From the NCBI RefSeq assembly GCF_988242995.1, contig NZ_OZ547043.1: 64,000 nt of DNA; one strand, given 5' to 3'. Shown in pieces: positions 35,101 to 56,332 of this stretch; position 1 is the stretch's first letter, and each line of letters opens with the position of its first letter. The translations under genes were made by a program, and so were the position numbers. The notes below the pieces were generated by a model. That model saw only the letters and a program-made list of their open reading frames with translations. It did not search any database and was not told the DNA's origin.

Positions 35101-35967
35101 TCACTTTCCAATTAATTGAAATAAATATTGACCATACTGTGTTTTCTCCATAATCCTGGCCTCAGTCAGGACCTGCTCCGCAGTCAGCCATTTATTGCGC
35201 AAAGCTATTTCTTCTAAGCAAGCAACTTTATATCCTTGACGCTTTTCGATAGTATGAACAAATTGAGAAGCTTCAATAAGGCTATCATGTGTTCCCGTAT
35301 CCAACCAAGCGAACCCCCTTCCCAAGAGTTCTACATTAAGCATATCCCGCTCAAGATACATTTTATTTATTGAAGTGATTTCAAGCTCACCACGAGGAGA
35401 TGGTTTAACTTGCTTTGCAAAATCCACCACCTGATTATCATAGAAATAGAGTCCAGTTATGGCCCAATTAGATTTTGGTGTTTGTGGCTTCTCTTCGACA
35501 GAGAGCACCTTAAATGATTCGTCAAATTCTACAATGCCAAATCGTTCAGGATCCATAACCTGATAGCCAAAAACTGTAGCTCCTCTTTTTCTGGAAGCCA
35601 CCTGTTCCAGTTTGCGACCGAAACTTTGACCGAAGAAAATATTATCCCCTAAAACCAGGGCACATTCATCACCAGCGATGAACTCTTCACCAATAATAAA
35701 AGCCTGCGCCAACCCATCAGGACTTGGTTGAATAGCATATTGAAGGTTAATTCCAAACCGGGATCCGTCTCCTAGCAGGCGTTTATACGATGATAAGTCC
35801 TCGGGAGTAGAAATAAGAAGTATATCTTTTATCCCTGCCAGCATTAATACTGAAATAGGGTAATATACCATTGGCTTATCATAAATAGGTAGGAGCTGTT
35901 TTGATACCCCTCGAGTAATCGGATAAAGTCGGGTACCAGAACCTCCCGCTAATATAATTCCTTTCAT
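35101..35967 (-). CDS. rmlA: glucose-1-phosphate thymidylyltransferase
   Basis: 288 aa, [16 protein letters not shown] motif; high identity to recalled RfbA. Confidence 0.9.
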
Positions 35968-36111: not shown

Positions 36112-36642
36112 TTAATCTAATTTTTTTAGGTATGTCGCTGGAGTGCCGCCTACTAATTCCTTTTCACCGACATCTTTTAGAACTACAGAATTTGCTGCAA
36201 CTATAGCTCCATTGTTAATAACAATAGGTCCCAAAATAACAGATCCAGTGGCCAATATAACATCGTTGCCAATAACAGGACGAAGTTCCTTGTTATATTT
36301 CATATCAAGTGTTTTTGCACCAATAGTGACATTTTGATATATAGTGCAGTTTTCACCTATACGCGCCGCACCGATAACTATGCCAAAGGTATGTGGTATG
36401 AAAAGTCCACCTTTAATCTCACATTCAGTTGCGATCTCAATGTTAAAAATGAGGACGTTTAAAAGTGAACAACATTTTGATATTCTTCTGAATCCTTTTT
36501 CTTTTAAAGAATAGGATGTCCTATATATTACATTGGGAATCAAACGAGGGCTAAAAATTCTAAAATAGTCTTTAAATTTAAAAGCAGATTCATTCCCAAT
36601 CAATTCTTTATATCTTTGAATATCTTGTTGTATATTTTTCAT
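36112..36642 (-). CDS. hexapeptide-repeat O-acetyltransferase
   Basis: 176 aa with left-handed beta-helix hexapeptide repeats; AT-rich. Confidence 0.65.
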   Translation of the reverse strand: MKNIQQDIQRYKELIGNESAFKFKDYFRIFSPRLIPNVIYRTSYSLKEKGFRRISKCCSLLNVLIFNIEIATECEIKGGLFIPHTFGIVIGAARIGENCTIYQNVTIGAKTLDMKYNKELRPVIGNDVILATGSVILGPIVINNGAIVAANSVVLKDVGEKELVGGTPATYLKKLD

Positions 36643-37699
36643 TTTTTATTCCTGCGTATCCTGCTAAAAACACCAGATATAGCCAAAACATAGGGAAAAG
36701 GAAGGTTAGTTTAAGGCAGGGGAGCAGGCATAATAACATCAATCTAAGTGAGAATCGTGAATATTTTAGGAACAATACCAGCCATGATACACTAAGGATA
36801 CTGCCTAACCAAAAGCCAAAAACGATGAAATTACTTCCGAATAACGTCATATCAAAAAGAGACTGAAAATAGTCTGGTGCATTGTCATAATACCCAACCA
36901 TACCGTGGCCAATATTAAAAACAAGAGGGCTATCAAAGAATGATTTCATCAACTCAAGTTTATATGATGTGCTACCATCACTACCAGATGAAATATAAGA
37001 CATACGCCACATAATGTTTTGATATATTATCGGAGAAACCAGTACTAACGATATTAACCCGGTTGCGATCCACTTTAGTGTCAATCTACAGGTAAGAATA
37101 AAAAATAACATAACGCAGATAACAGAGAAAGTCGAACCGGATAACACCATACACATTAATGCTATATAACTTAGTAATGAGTTATTATTAGCTACAATAT
37201 ACCTCATCACTAATAATGTGACCATATGTATAGAGAAAATACTCGGTTCGGCAAATACTCCTGTTGCTCTGTAATCGAAACCGTCATAACTGCTACGGTG
37301 TGGAGGACCTAACAAGAACTTCCCATAATCGATATCCACATTAATGATTTTGAAAGCTAAATACTGCAACAGGAAAGTAAAAATGTGAAACTTGATGCAA
37401 AAATCGATCACCTTAAGCCAGTCACAGCTTTTAATTCTTTTTACACAATAGCTATAGATTGATGGTACTGTCAATGCATAAAAGCAGCATACCAAAGTAA
37501 AAATAAATATTTTATCCACTACGCCAAAGAATACATGAAAAATAAGCGATGTGAACGATACCAGAATAAATATCAACCCTTGCGATGAAACCTTACATTT
37601 ACCCTGTATAAACACCAGAAAAAAAACGCAAAACTGAATAATAAAAAAAACCGGACTAAAAATGAAAAGAGTACCAAAAAGAAAATATATATTAGCCAT
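36608..37699 (-). CDS. wzy: O-antigen polymerase Wzy (putative)
   Basis: 363-aa polytopic membrane protein inside the O-antigen cluster; very AT-rich. Confidence 0.6.
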   Translation of the reverse strand: MANIYFLFGTLFIFSPVFFIIQFCVFFLVFIQGKCKVSSQGLIFILVSFTSLIFHVFFGVVDKIFIFTLVCCFYALTVPSIYSYCVKRIKSCDWLKVIDFCIKFHIFTFLLQYLAFKIINVDIDYGKFLLGPPHRSSYDGFDYRATGVFAEPSIFSIHMVTLLVMRYIVANNNSLLSYIALMCMVLSGSTFSVICVMLFFILTCRLTLKWIATGLISLVLVSPIIYQNIMWRMSYISSGSDGSTSYKLELMKSFFDSPLVFNIGHGMVGYYDNAPDYFQSLFDMTLFGSNFIVFGFWLGSILSVSWLVLFLKYSRFSLRLMLLCLLPCLKLTFLFPMFWLYLVFLAGYAGIKNEKYTTRYSKI

Positions 37700-38669
37700 T
37701 TCTTTCCCTTTTTGAATAACCCTCTATATAATACATAGCCAAGACTAACTTGTAAAATATTGCTCTGATTTTAAATTTATTCCTATTGTCTAACTTATTA
37801 AGAACAACCCTTACAAATTTATTAAGTTTAATACTATTAGCGCAAGACAAAGCTACTCTAAGCACAGTTGACTTCATACTACCTTTCCGCTCAGCCTGGG
37901 GAAATAGCAATTTATCTACAATTTCAGGATGTTTCTTAACCAAAAGCGGTACTGAGTACCTTGCATAAGGAATCATTCTTTCACATGCCCTATCGAGGGT
38001 AGGGGTGTCGTTATCGTAGAGTAAAGCATCGCTACAAAAGAAAAACGGAACAGAGCTTAAACGAAGCCGCGCCCCAAATTCTTCATCCTCACAACCATAA
38101 TGCCGGAATGATTCATCGAACCCTTTCTGTGCTTCAAACTCGGATTTGCTAATCAGGAAAGCATCGCTTGCAAAGTAGCGATACTCAATTTTAACAGTTC
38201 CTTTATATCTATTCCCCAAATATCGGGAGTCAAAGTAGTGTAGGTAATTGCTGTCGCGGGTTAAATCTTGCCGACATCTGACATTAGCCCTTGCTACAAA
38301 AGGCTTCTCGCAGGACAAAATCATTGAATGCAGGCTATCAAGACAACCTTGCTGGAGCAAATTGTCTATGTCGACAAAAAATAACCATTCATTGCTTGCT
38401 GATTTCGCAGCTCTATTTCGAGAAAAGGCGCGACCTTCATTTATTTCATTACGTAAGAACACTAACCGCCATTCGCGCTCATTAAATTTTTCAGAAAAGG
38501 CAATAGTTGTGTCTTCCAAATTCACCTCAGAACCGTCATCGATGATGATAAGTTCAATATTCTTTAGTATATTCTTTTGTCCATGAGTATTAGCGAGCAG
38601 AGCTGAGATGAAAGTTTCTACTTTTGATGAGCTACCGAGAACAGGGCTAATAATGCTAATCATTTGCAC
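37692..38669 (-). CDS. family 2 glycosyltransferase
   Basis: IIDDGS and VDIDN DxD-type motifs. Confidence 0.7.
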   Translation of the reverse strand: MQMISIISPVLGSSSKVETFISALLANTHGQKNILKNIELIIIDDGSEVNLEDTTIAFSEKFNEREWRLVFLRNEINEGRAFSRNRAAKSASNEWLFFVDIDNLLQQGCLDSLHSMILSCEKPFVARANVRCRQDLTRDSNYLHYFDSRYLGNRYKGTVKIEYRYFASDAFLISKSEFEAQKGFDESFRHYGCEDEEFGARLRLSSVPFFFCSDALLYDNDTPTLDRACERMIPYARYSVPLLVKKHPEIVDKLLFPQAERKGSMKSTVLRVALSCANSIKLNKFVRVVLNKLDNRNKFKIRAIFYKLVLAMYYIEGYSKRERNG

Positions 38670-39918
38670 GTTCCATTAAATATTTTTTAGTTACAGTTAA
38701 ATACCAATAGATTGAAACTAATATTGAAAAGAAAAGAGAAATATATAATGCAATAAAGATGCTTGGTATCGGCGCAGTAATAGCAGAGACTTTCAATGCG
38801 CTATAGATGCTCAGACATAATAAAAATACAAGACACCATTTAATGGTGTAATAGTAGTAACTCTTTGATGCAAGGTTAGCTGCGTTGATCAAATTATCGA
38901 CAGCAAAAAATGGCAACAAAAAGACCAGAATATTATAATAATTTGCCGATGTGACATAGTCATGGCCGAAAACAAATGTAAAGATATATGGTGTAAATGG
39001 CTTTAACGAAAATGAGAATAACGAAAAAGCAGTAAACATTATTATGGATAAGACAATAAGATTTCTGTTGAAAATTTTCCACTTCTTGTTTTTGTATAAA
39101 AGGATGGGGGCCAAAACCTGTATCAATATTAAGGTTACTGAAGCTGTATTCTCATTAATCTGTGATGCAGCACTATATATACCATAATCAACTGGTGAAA
39201 TGTTACCTTTCAGTAAGAATCTGTCAATTTTCATAAATAATGCATAGGCTACAACCCCTCCCCAGATGAAAAAACTGCGTTTTAACAGGAAGCCTATATC
39301 ATTTAGTCTAACAAGACTTATTCTGGGGAACTTACAAATTGAACAACAGTACATGACTATCGCAACAAAAATGCCCTCCAGTACCCATGGCAATGCAAGG
39401 AACTTGATATCGAAATTTATCACTATAAATAAGTAATATAGTGTTAGTATCCTGATAATGCAGCCAAAGATCTGGATGATACCTGAGAGGTATAATTTCC
39501 CTTCAGATTGCCATTTTGCAAAGCCTACCATCAATGGCTCTCGTGCCAAGAGAGTAACGGACGAAAATAGCAAGTAATACCTTACAATCTCACTTTCAGC
39601 TGTAATTGCGAGGATTACACTGACAGTAGCGACTAATGATGATACAGATAATCTTGCAAAAAAAATTGTATTACAATAAATCAATTTCTTGCGTAATGAA
39701 TAGCGCGATAACTGAGGGACAACTGATTCTGACCCGCACATCCAAGTTAGTGACATTAAAATATTTGAAAAAGTAAATGCATATTGCCAAATGCCAAACT
39801 GCTCAATTGGAAGCGCTTTTGAGATAAGATGGTTAGCATAAATAGCACTAATAATCTGTACAAATCGCTCAAACAACAGGACAAGCAATCCCGCAATAAT
39901 TGATTTATTCACGAACAC
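38656..39918 (-). CDS. wzx: O-antigen flippase Wzx (putative)
   Basis: 420-aa protein with about 12 hydrophobic segments. Confidence 0.65.
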   Translation of the reverse strand: MFVNKSIIAGLLVLLFERFVQIISAIYANHLISKALPIEQFGIWQYAFTFSNILMSLTWMCGSESVVPQLSRYSLRKKLIYCNTIFFARLSVSSLVATVSVILAITAESEIVRYYLLFSSVTLLAREPLMVGFAKWQSEGKLYLSGIIQIFGCIIRILTLYYLFIVINFDIKFLALPWVLEGIFVAIVMYCCSICKFPRISLVRLNDIGFLLKRSFFIWGGVVAYALFMKIDRFLLKGNISPVDYGIYSAASQINENTASVTLILIQVLAPILLYKNKKWKIFNRNLIVLSIIMFTAFSLFSFSLKPFTPYIFTFVFGHDYVTSANYYNILVFLLPFFAVDNLINAANLASKSYYYYTIKWCLVFLLCLSIYSALKVSAITAPIPSIFIALYISLFFSILVSIYWYLTVTKKYLMERAND

Positions 39919-40903
39919 CTTCCGGTGAGATTATTTTTTTCACCCATTGCTGTAAAGAATATTGTTCTCTATTTTTGTAATTAACATTCGGTGCGTTAAT
40001 AAAATTCTCAGGTACTATGACCTGATGTCTTTTTACTACGCAGATCATATTAGGGTCATAAAAATCGTACTTTTTTATGTCTTCATTCGTGGTAATAATT
40101 TTTTTATTTAACCCGATGCATTCTATTGTTCGCATTGTCAGACCGCGCTGCCTTGGATGATGAATATCGATGATAATTTCAGAGCACTTCATCATTTCAA
40201 CAACTTCAGATTGTGATAATGGTTCAAATTCTACGTCTGTATTTATTTTTTTTCCGCTTAATAAATTCTTCAGTTTAAAAATAATTTCATTCTGAAAATA
40301 AAAGAATGTATAAGCATTAATGTCTTTAATATTTCTTACTTCAGCAGTAATGCAATTGACCAAATCAACGCGATCTGAATGAGCTGTACCGATAAAACAA
40401 AGATCGTATTTTAGCGAATGCTCATGCTTATTGTCAAAACGCGGCGAATAAAACAGCGGAAGAAATGTTACTCCCCATTTTTCAGCATCATCACGTTCAA
40501 AGGTGAAAACCGAATCAAACTGATTTATTATTCTTTTAACTTTGGGTTTGTTATTGACCGAATCCCACAAATACATAATGAATTTACAGTGTTCATTTTT
40601 TACTTTAACGGTTTTTTTTATGGCCTGTAAAATTTCATGATCAATTGCTTCAGGATTTAAAATAAATACATTATCGATTTTTTTGTTGACAATTTGCCGT
40701 AGTAATTTTTTATAATAACTTGAGTTATACTTTTTAATCAAAATACTACAACCTAACCTTAGCAATGATTTATAAATAGCATTATTGCTCGGCCGCTCAT
40801 CCCAATAGATAACGTCATTAGTTAATTCTAATTCTTTGACTATTTCTTTTTCATAATTAAAAAACTTGGGAGAAATAAACAATACTGTATTTTTGTACCC
40901 CAT
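39905..40903 (-). CDS. putative glycosyltransferase, family unassigned
   Basis: 332-aa soluble protein in the O-antigen operon; no motif recognised by eye. Confidence 0.35.
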   Translation of the reverse strand: MGYKNTVLFISPKFFNYEKEIVKELELTNDVIYWDERPSNNAIYKSLLRLGCSILIKKYNSSYYKKLLRQIVNKKIDNVFILNPEAIDHEILQAIKKTVKVKNEHCKFIMYLWDSVNNKPKVKRIINQFDSVFTFERDDAEKWGVTFLPLFYSPRFDNKHEHSLKYDLCFIGTAHSDRVDLVNCITAEVRNIKDINAYTFFYFQNEIIFKLKNLLSGKKINTDVEFEPLSQSEVVEMMKCSEIIIDIHHPRQRGLTMRTIECIGLNKKIITTNEDIKKYDFYDPNMICVVKRHQVIVPENFINAPNVNYKNREQYSLQQWVKKIISPEGVRE

Positions 40904-41782: not shown

Positions 41783-42325
41783 TTATAAGCTAGCTTCTTT
41801 AAATTCTGAAAAACTAATTAACGCGTTGTCTTTAGATGACATAATTGGCATGTCTATCGGCCATTGTATATTCAGTTCTTTGTCATTCCAGATTATCCCC
41901 CCTTCATCGGTAGGATCATAGAAGTCTGTGCATTTGTAATGGAAATCCGCATACTCACTTAATACACAAAAACCATGTGCAAATCCAGGTGGGATATAGA
42001 TTTGATTATTTTTATCCCCAGAAAGTATAACACCTACATGCTTTCCAAAAGACGAAGATCCAGGTCTTAAATCAACAGCCACATCAAAAACTTCTCCACT
42101 GATGACACTTACTAATTTACCTTGAGGATTATTTTTTTGAAAATGTAAACCTCGAAGCACATTTCTTGCTGAGCGTGATCGATTATCTTGTACAAATGCC
42201 TCAGTTATTCCTATGTCGTGATATTTCTTCTGATGCCATGCTTCCAAAAAGAAACCACGAGAGTCACCAAAGACTTTTGGCTCAATGATTACACAACCAG
42301 CAAGTGGAGTCTCAATTACCTTCAT
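41783..42325 (-). CDS. rmlC: dTDP-4-dehydrorhamnose 3,5-epimerase family protein (RmlC-like)
   Basis: 180 aa, EPKVFGDSRGFF...VQDN...RGLHFQ motifs typical of RmlC cupins. Confidence 0.8.
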   Translation of the reverse strand: MKVIETPLAGCVIIEPKVFGDSRGFFLEAWHQKKYHDIGITEAFVQDNRSRSARNVLRGLHFQKNNPQGKLVSVISGEVFDVAVDLRPGSSSFGKHVGVILSGDKNNQIYIPPGFAHGFCVLSEYADFHYKCTDFYDPTDEGGIIWNDKELNIQWPIDMPIMSSKDNALISFSEFKEASL

Positions 42326-42396: not shown

Positions 42397-43479
42397 CTAA
42401 CGCATCTTGTAGTTCTGCTCAATCCAGGTTTGGTACGCCCCACTTTTGATATTTTCAACCCATGAGGTGTTTGCCAGATACCATTCAACCGTTTTGCGAA
42501 TCCCACTTTCGAACGTCTCTTGCGGTTTCCAACCGAGCTCACGGCTGATTTTATCCGCATCGATCGCGTATCGACGGTCATGGCCTGGACGATCGGCAAC
42601 ATAGGTGATTTGTTCACGGTATGACACTGCTTTAGGTACGATCTCATCCAGCAGGTCGCAGATGGTATGTACAACATCGAGATTTTTCTTCTCGTTATGG
42701 CCACCGATGTTGTAGGTCTCACCAGGGATTCCTTTCGTCACCACGGTATATAACGCACGGGCATGGTCTTCAACATAGAGCCAGTCGCGAATCTGATCGC
42801 CTTTACCATAAATGGGTAACGATTTCCCTTCGAGAGCATTGAGAATAACCAAGGGAATCAACTTTTCAGGGAAATGGTATGGGCCATAGTTATTCGAACA
42901 GTTGGTCACCATTGTTGGAAGACCGTATGTACGCAGCCAGGCACGAACGAGATGGTCGCTGGAGGCTTTTGAAGCCGAATAAGGACTACTCGGCGCATAG
43001 GCGGTTTGTTCCGTGAAGAGAGGAAGAATACTCCCCTGCGCAACCTCATCCGGATGCGGTAAATCCCCATAAACTTCATCAGTAGAGATGTGATGGAAGC
43101 GGAATGTCGCCTTTCGCGCACTATCCAGTGAGGACCAGTATTGACGGGCTGTTTCTAAAAGAACATAAGTACCCACAATATTCGTTTCAATAAATGCAGC
43201 AGGGCCTGTAATTGAACGGTCAACATGGCTTTCAGCAGCCAGGTGCATCACTGCATCCGGCTGATGCTGAGAAAAAATTCGCGCCATTGCAGCAGCATCG
43301 CAAATATCCGCATGTTCAAAAACATAGCGTTCAGAATCAGAAACATCAGCAAGTGATTCCAGGTTTCCGGCGTACGTTAATTTATCGACATTAACAACAC
43401 TATCCTGCGTATTATTTATAATGTGACGAACTACAGCAGAACCAATAAATCCTGCGCCACCAGTAACAAGTATCTTCAC
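42397..43479 (-). CDS. rmlB: dTDP-glucose 4,6-dehydratase
   Basis: 360 aa, [20 protein letters not shown]; YxxxK motif present. Confidence 0.9.
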
Positions 43480-43553: not shown

Positions 43554-43592
43554 CACGCTACCGCCCCTGGCTTTACAGCTACCAGAGCACTA
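43554..43592 (-). promoter_or_regulatory. JUMPstart element containing the ops site (GGCGGTAGCGTG)
   Basis: Reverse complement of the plus strand gives CAGTGCTCTGGTAGCTGTAAAGCCAGGGGCGGTAGCGTG; ops at 43554..43565. Confidence 0.85.
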
Positions 43593-43850: not shown

Positions 43851-44744
43851 TTATTCGCTTAACAGCTTCTCAATCCCTTTACGGAACTTCGCCCCTTCTT
43901 TGAGGTTGCGTAGTCCATACTTCACAAATGCCTGCATATAACCCATTTTTTTACCGCAGTCGTAACTGTCCCCAGTCATCAGCATGGCATCAACGGACTG
44001 TTTTTTCGCCAGCTCGGCAATAGCATCAGTCAGCTGAATACGTCCCCATGCACCAGGCTGAGTACGTTCCAGTTCCGGCCAAATATCGGCAGAAAGCACA
44101 TAGCGACCAACGGCCATGATGTCTGAGTCCAGCGTCTGCGGCTGATCCGGTTTTTCGATAAATTCGACGATGCGGCTGACTTTACCTTCACGATCCAGTG
44201 GTTCTTTGGTCTGAATGACGGAGTATTCAGAGAGGTCACCCGGCATACGTTTTGCCAGCACCTGGCTGCGGCCCGTTTCATTGAAGCGCGCAATCATGGC
44301 AGCAAGGTTGTAGCGCAGCGGGTCGGCACTGGCGTCGTCGATCACAACGTCCGGCAATACCACAACAAATGGGTTGTCACCAATGGCGGGTCGTGCACAC
44401 AAAATGGAGTGGCCTAAACCTAAAGGTTCGCCCTGACGCACGTTCATAATGGTCACGCCCGGCGGACAGATGGACTGTACTTCCGCCAGCAGCTGACGCT
44501 TCACGCGCAGTTCAAGGAGAGATTCTAATTCATAAGAGGTGTCGAAGTGGTTTTCGACCGCGTTTTTGGACGCGTGAGTTACCAGGAGGATTTCTTTGAT
44601 CCCTGCAGCCACAATCTCGTCAACAATGTACTGAATCATTGGCTTGTCGACGATCGGTAGCATCTCTTTGGGAATCGCCTTAGTAGCAGGCAACATATGC
44701 ATCCCTAGACCCGCTACAGGAATAACTGCTTTTAAATTCGTCAT
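43851..44744 (-). CDS. galF: UTP-glucose-1-phosphate uridylyltransferase-like GalF
   Basis: 297 aa from [22 protein letters not shown]. Confidence 0.9.
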
Positions 44745-44918
44745 TATTTCATCCACCTGTAAAATGGTTGCTGAATTATAGCTTGTTCGATTTTTTTCGC
44801 CAGCATCAATTACCCTGAATTGATTACTGAATTACTTGTGATGTTACGCCGCTTCGTTGTGGATTGCAGTAGCATTGTTCCTAAGTATGGCTCCATTTTT
44901 CCAGGAATGGTCGCAAAT

Positions 44919-55108: not shown

Positions 55109-56332
55109 TTATCCCCGAATATCATTTATAAATTGACGTAACACGTTCTCTTTATCGAGCGTGCGTTCGGCATATTCACGTGCCACCGTGTTGTGTTTGG
55201 GCAGCAGGAGCGCCTGACGGATCCCCGCCACCAGCGCCTCGACCGATTCCGGTTCTACGCAAACCGCAATGCCCGGAAAGGTTTCGCAAAGCTGCCCCAG
55301 TTCTGTGTGGGCTTCTGCGGTAATCACCGCGTTACCGCCTACCGCCAGAATATTGGTCAGTTTCGACGGCAATACGGCATCTGCCGCGCCGCGTTTTTGC
55401 ACCACCAGATGGCAATCGCCCATCTTCAGCAGTGCGGGTAAAGCGTCATACGATTGCAGCGGGAAAAATTGCATGTTGCGCAGTCCACGCTGCTGCGCCA
55501 TTTTTTCCAGCCGCGCTTTGCCGCCGCCTTGCCCGACAATGGCAAAAATCAGCGGTTCATCGCGCAGGCGATCGGCAGCTTCAATAACGTTTTCCAGCCC
55601 CTGCTTTTCACCAATATTGCCGGAGTAAAGAATGATTTTTTTGTTATCCGGCAGGCCAAGCTGGTTACGAAGGGCATCAACATCGGCATCTGCAACATGC
55701 TGAAAACGGGCAATTTCCGACCAGTTGGGGAAGAAAATGACGTTTTCCGCCGCCACGCCTTTTTCGATGGCTTTATTCATCATCGAACGCGAAATCGTGG
55801 AGACGTTATCGACGTTATGCAATCCGCTACGTTCGAACGCCGTTGCCAGCTGTGCCACTTTGCCGCCTTTGCCTTTTCCGGCAAGGCCCAGCCCCAGCAT
55901 GGCGTCCACTTCGTAATCCTGAATATGCAGCACGGTACGCGCACCAGAGAGTTTCGCCAGCAGGCGCATTCCCGGCGTGCAAAACAGCGTTGGCACCACG
56001 CCGATAATGCGATCCGGCTTCCAGCGACGTTGCGCCATCAGAGGAAAGAAACTGCTGACGGCAAAACTGCTGAGATGTAACAGGCGTTTCAGGGTGCTCG
56101 GCTGTTTTGGCACGTACAGCGGGCAGCGCCACACCGTGGCGGCCCCCTCTTCTCGTTTGTAGCGCCAGGCGGAATAGTTCTCGCCCACCTGCCACTGCGG
56201 GTAGTAAGGCGGTGCGGTAATAACCCGCACCTCATGACCTTGTGCCGCCAGCCATTCCACCATCTCGCCGGTGTATTTGCCGATACCGGTTAACTCCGGC
56301 GAGTAGTTAATGCCGTAGACCAGTATTTTCAT
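55109..56332 (-). CDS. wcaI: colanic acid glycosyltransferase WcaI
   Basis: 407 aa GT-B; synteny. Confidence 0.85.

Follow-up and report, generated by a model that had tools for sequence, protein, structure and literature searches.

We analysed a 64,000-nucleotide stretch of DNA (the window; RefSeq assembly GCF_988242995.1, contig NZ_OZ547043.1), which is identical (100%) to the chromosome of Escherichia coli S88 (O45:K1:H7), and followed up an open reading frame (ORF) of its O-antigen gene cluster that had been left unassigned (39905-40903, minus strand). The 332-amino acid product is almost certainly a glycosyltransferase with a GT-B fold. It is probably the soluble, peripheral 6-deoxy-L-talosyltransferase of the S88-type O45 O-antigen, acting on N-acetylglucosamine (GlcNAc) linked to undecaprenol by a diphosphate (GlcNAc-PP-Und). 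The ORF, its family membership, its predicted fold and the statistics on its gene context were established here. [quoted passage not shown] Its family is poorly studied and has no solved structure, Pfam model or biochemistry.

Assignment to a glycosyltransferase family

The protein matched a single NCBIfam profile, NF053598 ("WaaS/CpsH family glycosyltransferase"). The match is full-length (residues 6-325 on positions 1-317 of the 318 of the model) and strong (295.2 bits, E 8e-88, for a curated cut-off of 60 bits). The initial annotation had guessed at a divergent or unclassified transferase, which this match supports; the only NCBIfam match being to a glycosyltransferase family, no assignment to a family of another kind emerged. 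That annotation had also seen no recognisable motif in the protein, and our Pfam scan agrees, since it returned only noise (DUF6146 at E 0.85) and nothing meaningful. Three of 63 relatives weakly touched PF13524 (best E 6e-4). The GT4 profiles (Glycos_transf_1, PF00534, or related C-terminal models) had no match at E ≤ 1, and the resemblance of the protein to GT4-type enzymes is structural only. Matches to PF00535 and TIGR01556 were equally missing, as was similarity to WbbL, which places the protein outside the GT2 enzymes of the WbbL type. A sequence search of the PDB gave only noise.

Structure prediction, suggested earlier as a check, yielded a confident model with a GT-B fold, i.e., two Rossmann-like alpha/beta domains and a C-terminal helix that crosses back. 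The best structural matches of this model were all transferases. Sequence identity to the solved GT-B structures of PimA, BshA, WaaB and GumK is only 9-12%; the first three belong to retaining CAZy families, whereas the reaction that we propose for the 332-amino acid protein would be inverting. The protein (pI 8.9) has no hydrophobic segment, its highest 19-residue Kyte-Doolittle mean being 0.73. Hydropathy therefore rules out a membrane protein, in line with the earlier description of the protein as soluble.

We computed residue conservation over 83 relatives. The residues conserved in at least 97% of them include R37, D77, D114, H175, R178, D246, Q252, G254, T256, R258, E261, K268, T271 and N273. 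The C-terminal motif Q252-x-G-L-T-x-R-x-x-E261, which is also conserved in WaaS, seems to resemble the nucleotide-sugar-binding motif of GT4-type enzymes. Together with H175 and R178 it may form a nucleotide-diphosphate site, and D114 is a candidate base. The alignment (hhalign) of the family profile with the single sequence of WaaG gave no signal, so that no motif roles were transferred from it.

The protein might have the fold of a glycosyltransferase and yet act as a phosphotransferase, an epimerase-like enzyme or a partner of the cluster's acetyltransferase without catalytic activity of its own. This is very improbable given that every best structural match is a transferase and that the motif from Q252 to E261 is shared with WaaS. 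Moreover, two transferases in addition to WecA are required for a unit of three sugars and the cluster encodes only one other, and the loss of the reportedly similar Acinetobacter gene gtr29 prevents infection by a phage that binds capsular polysaccharide. The initial annotation had counted one canonical GT2 enzyme in the cluster and pointed to the need for more transferases. We indeed found one ORF with a Pfam GT2 match (37692-38669). Two transferases and WecA suffice for a three-sugar unit, and the assignment of the 332-amino acid protein as a transferase therefore closes the apparent gap in the cluster.

The finding is correct yet ordinary: the RefSeq record of S88 already assigns the gene to the right family, under the name "WaaS/CpsH family glycosyltransferase". 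Identical copies elsewhere in RefSeq are inconsistently named "hypothetical", "CgeB family" or "DUF3880 domain-containing". The protein is 100% identical in S88 and in 35 other E. coli genomes, and has more than 660 homologs.

Association with genes for 6-deoxy-L-talose

Two routes to dTDP-6-deoxy-L-talose are known, one through a 4-epimerase (Tle/WbiB) and one through a 4-reductase (Tll) (PMC11549994). To place the transferase in its genomic context we scanned one genome per species (250 relatives) and kept the best 79 loci, with flanks of 10 kb. Their hosts are a candidate-phylum bacterium and members of the Proteobacteria, Bacteroidota, Firmicutes, Cyanobacteria and Fusobacteria. Of the 79 loci, 70 had a Tle-like or Tll-like gene. 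Most of them (66) encoded a GalE-like, Tle-like epimerase of 376-380 amino acids, which lay just upstream of the transferase in 59 loci: directly, with a gap of at most 100 nucleotides, in 41; with only a serine-acetyltransferase-like gene between them in 17; and with some other gene between them in one. In the other seven loci the epimerase was encoded elsewhere in the flank. Four loci (Buttiauxella, Aliivibrio, Ewingella and Yokenella) had instead a Tll-like short-chain dehydrogenase/reductase (SDR) and lacked rmlD. Homologs of the acetyltransferase were found in 26 loci, including the 17 just mentioned, and rmlC in 36.

The Tle-like epimerases matched the Pfam Epimerase profile in two stretches separated by around 40 residues, which agrees with an insertion reported for Tle of Mycobacterium abscessus, a dTDP-L-rhamnose 4-epimerase with characterised biochemistry (PMC11549994). 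The transferase thus sits beside either of two different enzymes that make one and the same nucleotide sugar, and the simplest reading is that it transfers this sugar. A neighbour-joining tree grouped together six of the eight Tll-associated members, the S88 protein among them, and placed those of the O45 reference and of Yokenella on a second branch; taxonomy confounds this pattern.

The evidence within E. coli points the same way. The S88 cluster carries rmlA, rmlB and rmlC without rmlD, and the SDR gene adjacent to the transferase was rejected as rmlD (14.9 bits with TIGR01214, for a cut-off of 224). With a nucleotide search for distant matches, we traced related SDR genes to three further O-antigen types. 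In O109 the SDR is 58% identical to that of S88, and a homolog of the transferase (47% identity) adjoins the SDR and an acetyltransferase. The O45 reference encodes an SDR of 49% identity and, next to an acetyltransferase, a "hypothetical protein" of 336 amino acids that is 36% identical to the S88 transferase. The O66 type strain NCTC9066 has an SDR of 52% identity and a "hypothetical protein" of 322 amino acids (37% identity) that adjoins an acyltransferase. The homologs in the three types score 276-287 bits with NF053598; those of the O45 reference (L084:4817-5827, minus strand) and O66 (L085:2746-3714, minus strand) are still called "hypothetical" despite these scores. The O45 antigen was chemically shown to contain 6-deoxy-L-talose, in a repeat unit of N-acetylfucosamine (FucNAc), 2-O-acetylated 6-deoxytalose (6dTal2Ac) and glucose, FucNAc-6dTal2Ac-Glc (PMC12093740; PMC7685785). 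For O66, 6-deoxy-L-talose is named in the title of Jann 1995, as cited in PMC7685785. The acetyltransferase of S88 shares 43-51% identity with the acetyltransferases next to the transferase homologs of O45 and O109. We consider dTDP-6-deoxy-L-talose (hereafter dTDP-6dTal) the likely donor.

The protein could still be an L-rhamnosyltransferase like WaaS, with the adjacent 271-amino acid SDR making dTDP-L-rhamnose. WaaS is assigned to rhamnose; rmlD is found nearby in 27 of the 79 loci, and dTDP-L-rhamnose is therefore available in many hosts; and in a few loci rml genes occur without a homolog of Tle or Tll (e.g., L045, L039 and L060). Yet the SDR of S88 scores far below the RmlD cut-off, and it resembles the SDRs of O45 and O66, of which the former was shown and the latter is described to contain 6dTal, in clusters that both lack rmlD. 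In the loci with rmlD, it is the Tle-like epimerase, which converts dTDP-rhamnose to dTDP-6dTal, that adjoins the transferase. A rhamnosyltransferase in S88 is accordingly a quite improbable reading.

An alternative with the same donor would swap the roles of the two transferases of the cluster: the GT2 enzyme would transfer 6-deoxytalose to GlcNAc-PP-Und as WbbL does rhamnose, and the 332-amino acid GT-B protein would be the glucosyltransferase. WbbL-type GT2 rhamnosyltransferases make alpha-L-Rha-(1->3)-GlcNAc-PP-Und, an analogous linkage. Both reactions would be inverting, and the fold alone therefore does not decide between the two arrangements. The pair formed by O45 and S88 cannot separate the roles either, because the two clusters share homologs of both transferases. 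Against the swap, the S88 GT2 lacks similarity to WbbL and a TIGR01556 match, and was rejected as a WbbL-like rhamnosyltransferase. Its only clear homolog among O45, O66 and O109 is in O45 (a 320-amino acid transferase, 41% identity), whereas the GT-B family is present in O66 and O109 too. Hence, within E. coli the GT-B family tracks the Tll-like gene and the GT2 does not. The same family tracks Tle or Tll across bacteria, mostly in direct adjacency; a Collimonas locus (L028) has its own TIGR01556-like GT2 besides its trio of Tle, acetyltransferase and transferase genes; and WaaS, the sole family member with genetic data, is tied to a 6-deoxy-L-hexose. Swapped roles are thus improbable, and the GT-B protein remains our candidate for the 6-deoxytalosyltransferase.

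Tentatively, these loci could represent a general cassette, made of a dTDP-6dTal-forming enzyme (by the Tle or the Tll route), an optional O-acetyltransferase and a dedicated transferase for 6-deoxy-L-talose or, in some members, L-rhamnose, and spread over at least six phyla. Such a cassette may not yet have been described as such in the literature. If real, it would supply in S88 the acetylated 6dTal epitope of a virulence-linked O-antigen. The tight pairing with Tle or Tll provides a simple rule to predict 6-deoxytalose in polysaccharides from sequence. Examples of the arrangement, which is conserved in species of at least six phyla, are found at L028:8323-11005, L018:8257-10978 and L053:8614-10978.

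In two Lapidilactobacillus loci (L039:8881-9939 and L060:8821-9945) a membrane O-acyltransferase (Acyl_transf_3) precedes the transferase, with rmlA and rmlC nearby. No homolog of Tle or Tll was found there, and the donor sugar of these members may be rhamnose or a different one.

Comparison with known systems

A functional precedent is Gtr29 of the Acinetobacter baumannii capsule loci KL11, KL83, KL106 and KL112, which is encoded between tle and itrA3, with an acetyltransferase gene beside tle (PMC8199413). In KL83, KL106 and KL112, the block gtr27-gtr60-atr8-tle-gtr29-itrA3 builds alpha-GlcNAc-(1->2)-beta-Glc-(1->3)-alpha-L-6dTal-(1->3)-beta-GlcNAc, the 6dTal of K83 is 2-O-acetylated, and the order of action was confirmed by gene deletions in A. 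nosocomialis M2 (PMC8199413). The genes gtr29 (1041 nucleotides) and tle (1134 nucleotides) match in size those of the present loci, and the bacteria resist a capsular polysaccharide-binding phage when either is lost (PMC9097682). In Collimonas arenae, a trio of tle, serine acetyltransferase and glycosyltransferase genes was assigned to the synthesis and transfer of 6dTal by similarity to tle and gtr29 of A. baumannii, which equates a member of the present family with Gtr29 (PMC8313283). The same order of genes recurs in another Collimonas (L028), whose transferase matches NF053598 with 272 bits. The functional assignment that we make is in this sense already known, the reportedly similar Gtr29 having the same one.

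The two systems also differ. Acinetobacter uses the 4-epimerase Tle with rmlD, whereas S88 uses a Tll-like reductase without rmlD, and Gtr29 acts on capsule whereas the S88 protein would act on O-antigen. A homolog search started from a Moraxellaceae member returned no protein named Gtr29, only "hypothetical", "Eps11J", "CgeB family" and "DUF3880" names. A contig of Acinetobacter sp. encodes the Tle-acetyltransferase-transferase trio in a Pseudomonas-like arrangement, not in the order of KL11.

WaaS (RfaS) is described as the rhamnosyltransferase of the E. coli K-12 core (PMC6358824). It scores 179 bits with NF053598, and hhalign matched it to the profile of the 63 relatives with 97% probability (E 1.2e-10, 236 columns). 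Both proteins have the C-domain residues R178, D246, Q252, G254, T256, R258, E261, K268, T271 and N273, and L-rhamnose, the assigned donor sugar of WaaS, is the C4 epimer of 6-deoxy-L-talose. In contrast, pairwise BLASTP between the two sees only the last 102 residues (25% identity), and WaaS lacks the R37, D114 and H175 of the subfamily. The gene for WaaS is part of the waa core cluster, and its product acts on lipid A-core instead of an O unit linked to Und-PP. The other half of the family name is less clear: a literature search for WaaS together with CpsH found nothing, and Cps2H of Streptococcus suis is a doubtful "CpsH" because of its size (around 58 kDa, tagged), its transmembrane helix and its galactose donor (it is a beta-1,4-galactosyltransferase).

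The homologs in O45, O66 and O109 are similar over their full length (36-47% identity). All three clusters include rmlC and a Tll-like SDR, and an acyl- or acetyltransferase adjoins the homolog. In S88, by contrast, wzx, the GT2 gene and wzy come between the transferase and the acetyltransferase. The initiating sugar also differs in O45, where it is FucNAc and comes from a cluster-encoded WbpL-like enzyme (PMC7685785). Among unrelated families, the mycobacterial Gtf1 uses dTDP-6dTal made by Tle, but glycosylates a lipopeptide (PMC11549994). WbbL, a GT-A enzyme of family GT2 without similarity to the S88 protein, makes the type of linkage that we propose for the latter, alpha-L-6-deoxyhexose-(1->3)-GlcNAc-PP-polyprenol.

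Proposed assembly of the O unit

For the S88 O unit we infer the donor, the acceptor, the linkage and the order of the steps. RmlA, RmlB, RmlC and the Tll-like SDR would make dTDP-6-deoxy-beta-L-talose, while WecA, encoded elsewhere, would provide GlcNAc-PP-undecaprenol. We suggest WecA for the initiation because O45 has a WbpL-like initiating transferase and FucNAc genes that are missing from the S88 cluster. The 332-amino acid protein would then move 6-deoxy-L-talose onto GlcNAc-PP-Und with inversion, giving alpha-L-6dTal-(1->3)-GlcNAc; we favour this exact acceptor and linkage with some reserve. The serine-acetyltransferase-like enzyme would O-acetylate the talose and the GT2 would add a beta-glucose, after which Wzx would flip the unit and Wzy polymerise it.

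The S88-variant O unit ("O45rel", Jann 1995) reportedly consists of Glc, 6dTal2Ac and GlcNAc. Several points weigh against this model. The literature that we consulted contained no biochemical or genetic test of the 332-amino acid protein. WaaS, the sole family member with genetic evidence, is tied to rhamnose, not to 6dTal, and is a distant outlier. D114 is conserved in at least 97% of the subfamily but is an Asn in WaaS. In nine of the 79 loci the 10-kb flanks encode neither a Tle nor a Tll homolog; one of these nine has another SDR, of 285 amino acids, directly upstream of the transferase. Finally, the homology of Gtr29 to the S88 protein can be argued only indirectly, from the statement in PMC8313283, synteny and gene sizes.

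Organisation of the S88 O-antigen cluster

The cluster lies between galF and gnd, with all genes on the minus strand, and gnd follows rmlA in the order of transcription used in Table 1. The transferase gene starts with an ATG, one base past the stop of the upstream SDR gene and preceded by a Shine-Dalgarno-like stretch (AGGGAAG); at its other end it shares 14 bases with wzx, which starts with GTG. The region is AT-rich: GC content is 0.30-0.35 at the transferase gene and in the cluster centre, against around 0.53-0.55 in the flanks. An open frame of 332 codons is unlikely to arise by chance in such AT-rich DNA. GC content climbs toward both cluster ends, reaching 0.43-0.47 in rmlB. The rml genes are separated: rmlB and rmlC open the cluster at its 5' end, and rmlA stands by itself at the 3' end, beside gnd.

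Table 1. Features of the O-antigen cluster in the window, in order of transcription.
Feature	Position	Strand	Evidence or remark
galF	43851-44756	-	
ops element GGCGGTAG	43558-43565	-	Exact match in the galF-rmlB gap, upstream of the O-antigen operon
rmlB, dTDP-glucose 4,6-dehydratase	42397-43479	-	RefSeq annotation of the identical S88 sequence
rmlC, dTDP-4-dehydrorhamnose 3,5-epimerase	41783-42325	-	TIGR01221, 247.6 bits
Tll-like SDR, 271 amino acids	40905-41720	-	Pfam Epimerase; 49-58% identity with the SDRs encoded by the clusters of E. coli O45, O66 and O109
GT-B glycosyltransferase, WaaS/CpsH family, 332 amino acids	39905-40903	-	Proposed dTDP-6-deoxy-L-talose:GlcNAc-PP-Und 6-deoxytalosyltransferase
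wzx, flippase	38656-39918	-	RefSeq name "S88 variant O45 family O-antigen flippase"
GT2 (GT-A) glycosyltransferase	37692-38669	-	PF00535; proposed beta-glucosyltransferase
wzy, O-antigen polymerase	36608-37699	-	RefSeq annotation
Serine-acetyltransferase-like hexapeptide O-acetyltransferase	36112-36642	-	Hexapep and EpsC/CysE-like matches; proposed to acetylate 6-deoxytalose
rmlA (rfbA), glucose-1-phosphate thymidylyltransferase	35101-35967	-	RefSeq annotation; last gene of the cluster

Plainvert 2007 is said to have described the S88 O-antigen cluster. The O-antigen of the S88-type clone is a virulence factor in neonatal meningitis according to a statement in PMC7685785 that cites Plainvert 2007.

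S88-like O-antigen clusters were found in other Enterobacterales. Six proteins shared with Buttiauxella sp. A111 (L003) are 60-83% identical to those of S88. A contig with a protein named Kluyvera huaxiensis (L090) has a near-identical gene order (rmlC, SDR, transferase, wzx, GT2, wzy, acetyltransferase), and a third copy (L089), in which the SDR is split and the transferase truncated, looks decayed. Genera of this kind may be the source of the S88 O45 cluster or may share it, as these findings suggest.

The ops element is the recognition site of RfaH (PMC6358824). The window has two further exact matches, at 55339-55346 (minus strand) and 5676-5683 (plus strand). Three matches are not above chance, as 10 of 100 shuffles reach this number, and therefore only the position of the first is meaningful, in the galF-rmlB gap where RfaH-dependent antitermination is expected.

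Two ORFs in the surveyed loci were unusual. In Aliarcobacter vitoriensis (L023:8773-9843, plus strand) a reverse-transcriptase ORF (RVT_1) occupies the usual Tle-like position directly upstream of the transferase. In Pseudomonas fluorescens, a 327-amino acid ORF (L018:2467-3450, plus strand) fuses RmlC (dTDP_sugar_isom, residues 5-181) to an FdtA/WxcM-like C-terminal domain (residues 194-321).

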